A stretch of DNA of 64,000 nucleotides. Source: Escherichia coli. GTDB taxonomy: Bacteria > Pseudomonadota > Gammaproteobacteria > Enterobacterales > Enterobacteriaceae. How positions within the stretch are numbered: position 1 is the first letter of the stretch; each line of letters begins with the position of its first letter. The stretch lies in assembly GCF_002854065.1 (NCBI RefSeq), contig NZ_CP024147.1; one strand, 5' to 3'. The notes under the pieces were generated by a model, which saw only the letters and a program-made list of their open reading frames with translations, was not told the origin of the DNA and made no database searches. Below are positions 19,549 to 24,459 of this stretch, piece after piece. Position numbers and translations under genes: made by a program.

Positions 19549-21975
19549 ATGTCCAAAAATGAACAAATGGTGGGCATCAGCCGCAGAACACTCGTTAAAT
19601 CTACCGCGATAGGTTCTCTGGCGCTGGCTGCAGGCGGTTTTTCTTTACCGTTTACCCTGCACAGTGCAGCAGCAGCGGTACAACAGGCCCGCGAAAAAGT
19701 GGTCTGGGGTGCCTGTTCTGTCAACTGTGGTAGCCGCTGTGCACTTCGTCTACATGTTAAAGATAATGAAGTGACCTGGGTGGAAACTGACAATACCGGC
19801 AGCGATGAGTACGGCAACCATCAGGTACGCGCCTGTTTGCGCGGTCGCTCCATCCGCCGGCGTATTAATCATCCCGATCGCTTGAATTACCCAATGAAAC
19901 GCGTGGGCAAACGCGGCGAAGGCAAATTCGAACGGATTAGCTGGGATGAAGCCCTGGATACTATCGCCAGTAGCCTGAAGAAAACCGTCGAACAATATGG
20001 CAATGAGGCTGTATATATTCAGTACTCTTCGGGGATCGTTGGCGGCAATATGACCCGCTCTTCGCCATCAGCCTCGGCGGTCAAACGCCTGATGAACTGC
20101 TACGGCGGTTCACTCAACCAGTATGGCTCCTACAGCACTGCGCAAATTTCCTGTGCCATGCCCTACACCTACGGCAGTAATGATGGCAACAGCACCACGG
20201 ATATTGAAAACAGCAAGCTGGTCGTGATGTTTGGTAACAACCCGGCAGAAACCCGCATGAGCGGCGGTGGCATCACTTATCTTCTTGAAAAAGCCCGCGA
20301 AAAATCGAACGCAAAAATGATTGTTATCGATCCGCGATATACCGATACGGCTGCCGGTCGTGAAGACGAATGGCTTCCTATTCGCCCGGGCACCGATGCC
20401 GCGCTGGTTGCGGGTATTGCCTGGGTATTGATTAACGAAAATCTCGTTGATCAACCTTTTCTCGATAAATACTGCGTCGGCTATGACGAAAAAACCTTAC
20501 CCGCAGATGCACCCAAAAATGGTCACTATAAAGCCTATATTCTTGGTGAAGGTGACGATAAAACAGCGAAAACGCCGCAGTGGGCTTCGCAAATTACCGG
20601 TATCCCGGTGGACCGTATCATCAAACTGGCGCGTGAAATTGGCACAGCAAAACCCGCTTATATCTGCCAGGGCTGGGGGCCGCAACGCCAGGCAAACGGC
20701 GAGCTGACCGCACGCGCTATTGCTATGTTGCCTATTCTGACGGGCAATGTCGGCATCAGCGGCGGAAATAGTGGCGCGCGTGAATCGACCTATACCATTA
20801 CCATAGAGCGCCTGCCGGTGCTGGATAATCCGGTCAAAACGTCAATTTCCTGCTTCAGCTGGACAGATGCTATCGATCATGGCCCACAAATGACGGCAAT
20901 CCGCGACGGTGTCCGGGGCAAAGATAAACTGGATGTGCCCATTAAGTTCATCTGGAACTACGCGGGAAATACCCTGGTTAATCAGCATTCTGACATCAAC
21001 AAAACGCATGAAATTCTGCAGGACGAATCGAAATGCGAAATGATTGTGGTCATCGAAAACTTTATGACCTCATCGGCAAAATATGCCGACATTCTGCTGC
21101 CAGACCTGATGACCGTTGAGCAGGAAGATATTATTCCTAACGACTACGCCGGTAACATGGGATATCTCATTTTCCTCCAGCCAGTCACCAGCGAAAAATT
21201 CGAACGTAAACCGATTTACTGGATCCTGAGTGAGGTCGCGAAACGTCTTGGACCTGACGTCTATCAAAAGTTCACTGAAGGTCGCACGCAGGAACAATGG
21301 TTACAACATCTGTACGCCAAAATGCTTGCCAAAGATCCGGCGTTACCGTCTTACGACGAACTGAAAAAAATGGGTATCTATAAGCGTAAAGATCCCAATG
21401 GTCATTTTGTCGCCTACAAAGCATTTCGTGACGACCCCGAGGCAAATCCACTTAAAACACCTTCCGGTAAGATTGAAATTTATTCCAGCAAGCTGGCGGA
21501 AATTGCCCGTACCTGGGAACTGGAAAAAGATGAAGTGATAAGCCCACTGCCAGTTTATGCCTCAACCTTTGAAGGCTGGGACTCCCCTGAACGTAGTACC
21601 TTTCCACTGCAACTGTTTGGTTTCCATTACAAATCCCGTACTCACTCGACCTACGGCAATATTGATCTCCTGAAGGCTGCCTGCCGTCAGGAGGTGTGGA
21701 TCAACCCTATAGATGCGCAGAAACGTGGGATTGCCAACGGCGATATGGTGCGGGTGTTTAACCATCGTGGCGAAGTTCGGCTACCAGCCAAAGTGACACC
21801 ACGTATTCTCCCTGGAGTTAGCGCTATGGGCCAGGGAGCCTGGCACGAGGCCAATATGTCTGGCGATAAAATCGACCATGGAGGCTGTGTGAATACGCTA
21901 ACCACTCTGCGCCCTTCACCACTGGCGAAGGGAAACCCGCAGCATACGAATCTGGTCGAGATCGAAAAAATATAA
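19549..21975 (+). CDS. ynfE: Tat-exported molybdoenzyme, DMSO reductase family (YnfE)
   Basis: 808-aa ORF; twin-arginine signal SRRTLVK. Confidence 0.9.
   Translation: [808 protein letters not shown]

Positions 21976-24459: not shown

Follow-up and report, generated by a model that had tools for sequence, protein, structure and literature searches.

The ynfEFGH-dmsD operon in Escherichia coli: divergence, intactness and strain variation of its tandem catalytic genes ynfE and ynfF

Genes of the ynfEFGH-dmsD operon

The DNA analysed here, a stretch of 64,000 nucleotides (nt) from Escherichia coli (contig NZ_CP024147.1; hereafter the window), contains two adjacent homologous genes, ynfE and ynfF, followed by ynfG, ynfH and dmsD. 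The region 19436-26600 is almost certainly the ynfEFGH-dmsD operon, a single transcription unit encoding a selenate/tellurate reductase of the DmsABC (dimethyl sulphoxide, DMSO, reductase) type with two old copies of the catalytic gene, and nothing in the data contradicts this identification. The operon is already known, a textbook one that lies here in its standard intact form, and the window holds nothing new in this respect.

The open reading frames (ORFs) of catalytic subunits 1 (ynfE, 19549-21975) and 2 (ynfF, 22033-24459) both lie on the plus strand, start with ATG and encode 808 amino acids (aa) in the ORF list; matches to protein models and the RefSeq annotation of the identical sequence identify them. 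No internal stop interrupts either frame, so both copies are full length, as the sequence-only reading of this DNA had stated. For ynfF, the 808 aa are counted from the first ATG; RefSeq places the start in the identical genome at the second ATG of ATGATG (22036, 807 aa), and the 808 aa thus mark the longest ORF that can be read, not the annotated length.

YnfE and YnfF are identical at 565 of 799 residues (71%), with 85% positives, 5 gaps and E = 0 in BLASTP, a similarity far beyond chance which establishes the two copies as paralogues. The long stretches of identical protein sequence claimed in that reading are present, the longest runs being 26, 20, 19, 18 and 18 residues. A nucleotide alignment of 19549-21975 with 22033-24459 confirmed the duplication at 69.8% identity (2,412 ungapped columns and 30 gap columns), ranging per 150-nt block from 0.51, at the signal-peptide end, to 0.78; the longest exact DNA run common to both genes is 17 nt.

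Model searches separated the copies. The first (19549-21972) scored 1795.7 bits with the NCBIfam model NF041885 (YnfE; cut-off 1675) and 1475.2 bits with NF041884 (YnfF), under the cut-off of 1650, while the second (22033-24456) reached 1770.8 bits with NF041884 and 1480.5 bits with NF041885. Each copy thus passes its own curated model only, which bears out the gene names given to the pair. Both exceed the cut-off of 777.7 bits of the DmsA/YnfE-type model TIGR02166, YnfE with 1398.7 and YnfF with 1283.3 bits. The Pfam domains PF04879 (Fe4S4), PF00384 (molybdopterin oxidoreductase) and PF01568 (molybdopterin guanine dinucleotide, MGD, binding) were found in YnfE, and the same set is precomputed for the E. 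coli YnfF cluster P0015.

Twin-arginine (Tat) motifs stand near the N terminus of both proteins, SRRTLVK in YnfE (aa 11-17) and SRRSLMK in YnfF (aa 16-22), comparable to SRRGLVK in DmsA. Both proteins thus carry predicted twin-arginine signal peptides, in line with the Tat dependence proposed earlier, and their export would follow as a prediction from these motifs. The Cys group for the FS0 [4Fe-4S] cluster consists of CSVNCGSRC (aa 56-64) plus Cys96 in YnfE and CTVNCGSRC (aa 60-68) plus Cys100 in YnfF; the pattern C-x3-C-x3-C with the Cys of RACLRG is present in YnfE, YnfF and DmsA. At aa 195 both proteins have YSTAQ, the first serine of which aligns with Ser205 in YSSAQ of K-12 DmsA, and Ser196 of YnfE is accordingly the predicted molybdenum (Mo) ligand. 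We take DmsA Ser205 to be the Mo ligand published as 'Ser176', with the older numbering presumably starting at Met30. No solved structure of DmsA, YnfE or YnfF was present in the copy of the PDB that was searched, the nearest being Rhodobacter DMSO reductase and trimethylamine N-oxide (TMAO) reductases.

Downstream of the pair lie one gene each for an iron-sulphur (FeS) subunit, a membrane anchor and a chaperone, on the same strand and separated, counting from ynfF, by gaps of only 10, 1 and 42 nt; the earlier proposal that both catalytic subunits share these three genes agrees with the model matches. The gene ynfG (24470-25087, plus strand, 205 aa) encodes the shared four-cluster FeS electron-transfer subunit (TIGR02951, DMSO_dmsB, 264.8 bits; cut-off 214.1). 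The shared anchor and quinol-oxidising subunit is encoded by ynfH (25089-25943, plus strand, 284 aa), the product of which had no NCBIfam match and is identified by a full-length match to Pfam PF04976 (DmsC, 425 bits) and by its RefSeq name. The Tat proofreading chaperone gene dmsD (25986-26600, plus strand) matches NF008632 (DmsD) with 347.3 bits (cut-off 162); its ORF opens at 25977, and RefSeq places the start at 25986.

The chromosome of E. coli strain CUWW06 is 100% identical to window 19300-26700 and is annotated there with ynfE, ynfF, ynfG, ynfH and dmsD, which, together with the literature, supports the claim that the duplication is a known one. The flanking genes are ynfD, upstream of ynfE, and clcB, downstream of dmsD. 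Among the 5,424 complete E. coli genomes matching this region, 5,060 contain 80% or more of it, mostly at 95-99% identity; over the 4.9 kb of ynfEF, the window agrees to about 98-99% with most E. coli genomes, laboratory strains among them. Two full-length copies are the ancestral and majority state in E. coli, a real but unremarkable feature. An operon of this kind can be annotated automatically, and its presence matters little for the window itself.

Age of the duplication and roles of the two copies

In a codon alignment of ynfE and ynfF (Nei-Gojobori), the proportion of synonymous differences (pS) was 0.70, corresponding to a saturated synonymous divergence (dS) of about 2, with a non-synonymous divergence (dN) of 0.21 and a dN/dS of about 0.1. 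Saturated synonymous sites together with low dN indicate that the duplication is old and that purifying selection acts on both copies. Gene conversion between the copies was considered and ruled out, as a sliding Nei-Gojobori analysis gave no stretch in which synonymous divergence was low: pS per 60-codon block ranged from 0.58 to 0.91 and was saturated in every block. There is, therefore, no recent conversion tract, and the DNA likeness left between the genes is an effect of protein constraint alone. The pair offers a clean example of protein likeness kept by selection, with saturated synonymous sites and no sign of concerted evolution.

Comparisons across genera also bear on the age of the duplication. 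E. coli YnfE shares 84-91% of its residues with the YnfE proteins of E. albertii, Kluyvera, Enterobacter, Kosakonia and Citrobacter and 70% with the YnfF of E. coli itself, so the duplication is older than the separation of these genera. Salmonella also has both paralogues, which likewise share 71% identity (PMC5203670), and this makes the duplication older than the split between Escherichia and Salmonella. The YnfF-type sequence of Salmonella matches E. coli YnfF at 91-92% identity. More distant proteins, with 76-80% identity to YnfF, are present in Providencia, Aeromonas and Pasteurellaceae and, as an additional paralogue, in Salmonella (clusters P0055, P0049, P0056, P0063 and P0065). Some of them are named YnfF by NCBI, and they may be either YnfF orthologues or a separate DmsA-like lineage. 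Because the Salmonella YnfF-type sequence is so much closer to that of E. coli, the Salmonella cluster P0055 (~80% identical to E. coli YnfF) is probably another DmsA-family paralogue; for the apparent 'YnfF' of Providencia, Aeromonas and Pasteurellaceae we make no claim of orthology.

A similar pattern was found for the FeS subunit. YnfG and K-12 DmsB (L012:3915-4532) are 94.1% identical in protein sequence, far above the other subunit pairs of the two enzymes (66% and 57%), which suggested ectopic conversion between ynfG and dmsB. This was ruled out at the DNA level, where identity is 81%, pS is 0.73 and saturated, and the longest exact run is 38 nt (24584-24621). Given the saturated synonymous sites, the likeness reflects very strong constraint on the FeS subunit rather than gene conversion. 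The 38-nt run also accounts for the second megablast 'place' reported in most genomes.

The activity of the enzyme, the pairing of its subunits and its regulation are taken from the literature or inferred. The operon would encode a membrane-bound, periplasm-facing molybdenum reductase of the DmsABC type, with a bis-MGD cofactor, for selenate and tellurate, a role for which PMC12096835 cites Fujita et al. 2021. The genes ynfE and ynfF, as products of an ancient tandem duplication, would each provide a complete alternative catalytic subunit. DmsD may hold the signal peptide during cofactor insertion, and the DmsD of Salmonella binds the signal peptides of DmsA, YnfE and YnfF (PMC5203670). Either catalytic subunit would then pair with the single FeS subunit YnfG and be exported folded through the Tat pathway, and the pair would dock on the single anchor YnfH and receive electrons from menaquinol. 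A delta-ynfEF mutant loses selenate reduction, which is restored by SrnA, a single YnfE orthologue (PMC12724226). In Salmonella, YnfE is the main selenate-reducing catalytic subunit and YnfF 'does not contribute greatly' (PMC5203670), experiments which identify YnfE as the main selenate reductase and YnfF as a minor isoenzyme.

Upstream of the operon, at 19436-19449 on the plus strand and 100 bp from the ynfE ATG, we found a candidate FNR-type half-site pair, TTGATatggATTAA, with one mismatch to TTGAT-N4-ATCAA. Two perfect NarL heptamers flank it, TACTCAT on the plus strand (19420-19426) and TACCCAT on the minus strand (19466-19472). The FNR-type motif has 8 matches in the window, with 3.2 expected, so that a single match is weak by itself, and the density of NarL heptamers over the whole window is at chance level. 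The proposed promoter architecture combines these consensus matches with a secondary citation of Xu et al. 2009, through which a passage of PMC10845959 places ynfEFGH under FNR control. According to the literature, the operon would be switched on by FNR in the absence of oxygen and repressed by NarL in the presence of nitrate.

The 57-nt spacer between ynfE and ynfF (21976-22032, plus strand) holds the ynfF Shine-Dalgarno sequence GTGAG. No terminator-like site was found in it, which fits co-transcription of the two genes, and an Rfam scan of 16000-30000 returned no family at gathering score. At 22017-22035 on the plus strand, covering the Shine-Dalgarno sequence and the start codon of ynfF, lies a stretch complementary to the small RNA RyhB, AAGCAATAAGTGAGTAATG. 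The ynfF start region would pair with the RyhB core over 7 + 5 + 4 bp with a 2-nt bulge and one mismatch; the predicted duplex with K-12 RyhB has an energy of -35.4 kcal/mol, compared with -24.7 +/- 4.3 for shuffled sequences, 7 of 300 of which reach that value. The start regions of ynfE and ynfG gave RyhB duplex energies no better than their shuffles. The complementarity matches published work in which RyhB represses a ynfF (-60..+24)-lacZ fusion and in which ynfF, without ynfE, is among the listed RyhB targets (PMC4666370). Taken with this work, the two catalytic genes would share a promoter, and ynfF would add, via the spacer, its own iron-dependent translational control by RyhB.

These differences raise the possibility that the copies have become subfunctionalised and that YnfF is kept for another substrate (an oxyanion or an S- or N-oxide) or another condition, such as iron-replete anaerobiosis. 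We consider this possible but only tentatively so. Long-term purifying selection on both copies, with dN/dS of about 0.1, speaks for it, as does the separation of YnfE and YnfF into distinct, widely conserved clades; in addition, the published list of RyhB targets names ynfF and not ynfE (PMC4666370), and RyhB complementarity was found at the ynfF start region only. In strain EC958, the ynfF transcript after hypochlorous acid (HOCl) treatment also behaved unlike that of ynfE (PMC12096835), although ynfF is a pseudogene there. Against it stand the small share of YnfF in selenate reduction, with no distinct substrate reported (PMC5203670), the loss or fusion of ynfF in many lineages without obvious compensation, and the fact that Enterobacter cloacae copes with a single srnA (PMC12724226).

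Recombination between ynfE and ynfF and loss of ynfF in other strains

The sequence-only reading had also called the duplication a substrate for recombination, and this claim holds only weakly, for rare homeologous or illegitimate deletions in other genomes. In the window there is no sign of exchange between ynfE and ynfF. Shen and Huang are said to have reported in 1986 a minimal efficient processing segment of ~23-27 bp for RecA/RecBCD recombination in E. coli. What would mark the pair as an ordinary RecA-dependent repeat, namely identity over at least ~23-27 bp, high DNA identity or conversion tracts, was not found: with 69.8% DNA identity, exact runs of at most 17 nt and no conversion tract, it is a poor classical RecA substrate. 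In other isolates, however, rare in-register ynfE::ynfF hybrids exist, so homeologous crossovers do occur at low frequency.

These hybrids came to light when a large protein collection was searched with YnfF. The matches included E. coli proteins of exactly 808 aa and 82-88% identical to YnfF which, profiled against the two window copies, consist of a YnfE N-terminal part joined in register to a YnfF C-terminal part. At least 5 junction classes were distinguished in E. coli, near residues 344, 380-382, 451, 460 and 520, and at least 5 in Salmonella, where 812-aa hybrids at a single-gene locus have junctions at ~242, 336, 424, 476 and 624. The hybrid gene, which encodes 808 aa in E. coli and 812 aa in Salmonella, replaces the pair (L005:5001-7427, L006:5001-7427, L007:3990-6416, L008:5001-7427 and L011:5001-7439), giving the order ynfD, one ynfE::ynfF gene, ynfG, ynfH and dmsD, and corresponds to a deletion of 2,484 bp, that is, one repeat period. 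Each hybrid shows one clean switch at the DNA level, with 726-739 of 754-761 diagnostic sites fitting a single breakpoint. Three crossovers were mapped on DNA. They fall in 5 nt (20581-20585/23065-23069), 11 nt (20926-20936/23410-23420) and 9 nt (21103-21111/23587-23595) of identity between the genes, all in window coordinates, and none at a 17-nt run. One hybrid was found in both an NCBI assembly and a Logan assembly.

Fusions out of register are also found, in at least 12 in-frame classes of 777-1206 aa. The two commonest junctions, represented by fusions of 1,146 aa (L009:3001-6441) and 946 aa (L010:3001-5841), arose from the loss of 1,470 and 2,070 bp, respectively, with microhomology of 0-2 nt. 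In the assembly collection, 57 blocks are indexed for the first and 140 for the second, and both are absent from 5,426 RefSeq complete genomes. Of ~17 in-frame fusion classes in E. coli, 5 are in register, where a random register would predict about 1 in 800, which argues that homeology guides some of the events. All hybrid alleles are rare, most clusters having one member, and the way in which matches are listed favours proteins that are long and score highly. Among the best 120 matches, there was no reciprocal F::E (amplification) product. Either RecA-mediated homeologous exchange or template switching during replication could have generated the hybrids. As for the losses in the complete-genome collection, the idea that they are ynfE x ynfF crossovers was ruled out, the cases examined being internal ynfF deletions of the ST131 type, an IS3-mediated deletion and an IS1-mediated deletion.

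The in-register hybrids lack the spacer 21976-22032 and, therefore, presumably also RyhB control, and they keep the YnfE signal peptide and the promoter-proximal position while carrying a YnfF C-terminal portion. It is conceivable, if rather doubtful, that ynfE-ynfF is a recurrent, register-preserving site of homeologous recombination which collapses independently in E. coli and Salmonella into functional chimeras free of RyhB. If this were true, the hybrids would form a ready-made domain-swap series for mapping the differences between YnfE and YnfF. The hybrids also show that tandem paralogues about 70% identical can still recombine in register at low frequency.

A stronger version of the recombination claim, in which gene conversion maintains the likeness of the copies and RecA-dependent unequal crossing over frequently collapses them, seems improbable. 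The 2,484-bp in-register deletions with at least five junction classes in each of the two genera, and their excess over the random expectation, speak for it. It is, however, at odds with the high pS of every 60-codon block (at least 0.58), with a longest run under the ~23-27 bp minimum at 69.8% identity, with crossovers in just 5, 11 and 9 nt of identity, none of them at a 17-nt run, with the majority of fusion classes being out of register at 0-2 nt of microhomology, with the rarity of hybrids, mostly in single-member clusters, and the absence of the commonest junctions from the complete genomes, and with the missing reciprocal product among the best matches.

Loss of ynfF by other routes is frequent. 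In the sequence type 131 (ST131) allele, ynfF is a pseudogene with two frame-breaking internal deletions, equivalent to 581 bp (22749-23329) and 274 bp (24104-24377) of the window, and 546 of 5,426 complete E. coli genomes have the first of these junctions. The allele is located at L002:5488-7057 in strain 131 and at L016:27264-28833 in EC958, which is one of the 546 and the ST131 strain from which the ynfF expression data of PMC12096835 derive. In other strains, IS3- and IS1-mediated deletions take out ynfE or both genes, and in a pangenome study from 2026 both genes rank with those E. coli metabolic genes that are most often pseudogenes (PMC13322260). The set of functional catalytic genes thus varies between strains, from both copies to a single one, a hybrid or none, which affects how selenate and tellurate phenotypes and ynfF expression data are read; the data from EC958, where ynfF is a pseudogene, are an example. 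That ynfF is simply a redundant copy being lost, and that its intactness here is an ancestral state not yet eroded, is suggested by the frequency of the ST131 allele, the insertion-sequence (IS) deletions and the pseudogene counts, but is unlikely given that the duplication is older than the split of the enterobacterial genera with YnfF still strongly purified (dN 0.21 vs dS ~2), that ynfF is intact in most E. coli genomes and that ynfE is lost in some strains too, so that decay is not specific to ynfF.

Some points in the description of the operon are weaker than its identification. The FNR and NarL sites were found by consensus, with motifs at or near chance density in the window, and are in line with the published regulation without proving it. 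The start codon of ynfF may be either 22033 or 22036, and frequent natural loss of ynfF (546/5,426; PMC13322260) shows that the second copy is dispensable in some lineages, which fits a minor isoenzyme.

Surroundings of the operon and comparison with known systems

Several features set the window apart from the otherwise near-identical CUWW06 chromosome. A 1,331-bp insertion at 17164-18494, with a 5-bp target duplication (17159-17163 and 18495-18499), splits ynfC into fragments at 16892-17163 and 18495-18938; the ynfE promoter follows about 1 kb downstream. It contains two minus-strand ORFs, of 301 aa (rve integrase-core domains) and 136 aa (HTH_Tnp_1), and its size and target duplication fit IS2. 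Window 1-12516 has no match in CUWW06; in other E. coli genomes it is matched best by genes of lambdoid prophages, among them those for tail tip protein J, tape measure, tail fibre and exonuclease, so a prophage or its remnant adjoins rspB in this strain. At 54324-55092 there is an IS1, 100% identical to the IS1B copies of CUWW06, which adjoins a uidC remnant. The 667 bp at 53657-54323 are kept in the window and missing in CUWW06, and the two strains thus differ in the extent of uidC removed beside IS1.

The closest known system is the ynfEFGH-dmsD operon of E. coli K-12 (ynfEFGHI, b1587-b1591; Lubitz and Weiner 2003; Guymer et al. 2009; Fujita et al. 2021), which has the same genes in the same order with the same spacing and the same flanking genes, ynfD and clcB. 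No substantial difference was found inside the operon; upstream of it, ynfC is split in the window by the putative IS2. Salmonella enterica carries the same operon, ynfEFGH-dmsD, with both paralogues (PMC5203670); its proteins are ~85-92% identical to their E. coli orthologues, and its YnfE has 812 aa.

DmsABC of E. coli follows the same design, with a Mo-bisMGD catalytic subunit bearing a Tat signal and the FS0 Cys group, a four-cluster FeS subunit and a DmsC-type anchor, and it uses the same chaperone, DmsD. Identities to the K-12 DMSO reductase are 66.6% for YnfE/DmsA, 65.9% for YnfF/DmsA, 94.1% for YnfG/DmsB and 57% for YnfH/DmsC. The dmsABC operon differs in having one catalytic gene and no chaperone gene, and its enzyme acts on S- and N-oxides rather than on selenate or tellurate (PMC12096835). 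The selenate reductase srnABCD of Enterobacter cloacae SLD1a-1, with one catalytic gene and no ynfF copy, is a natural single-copy counterpart of the operon described here.

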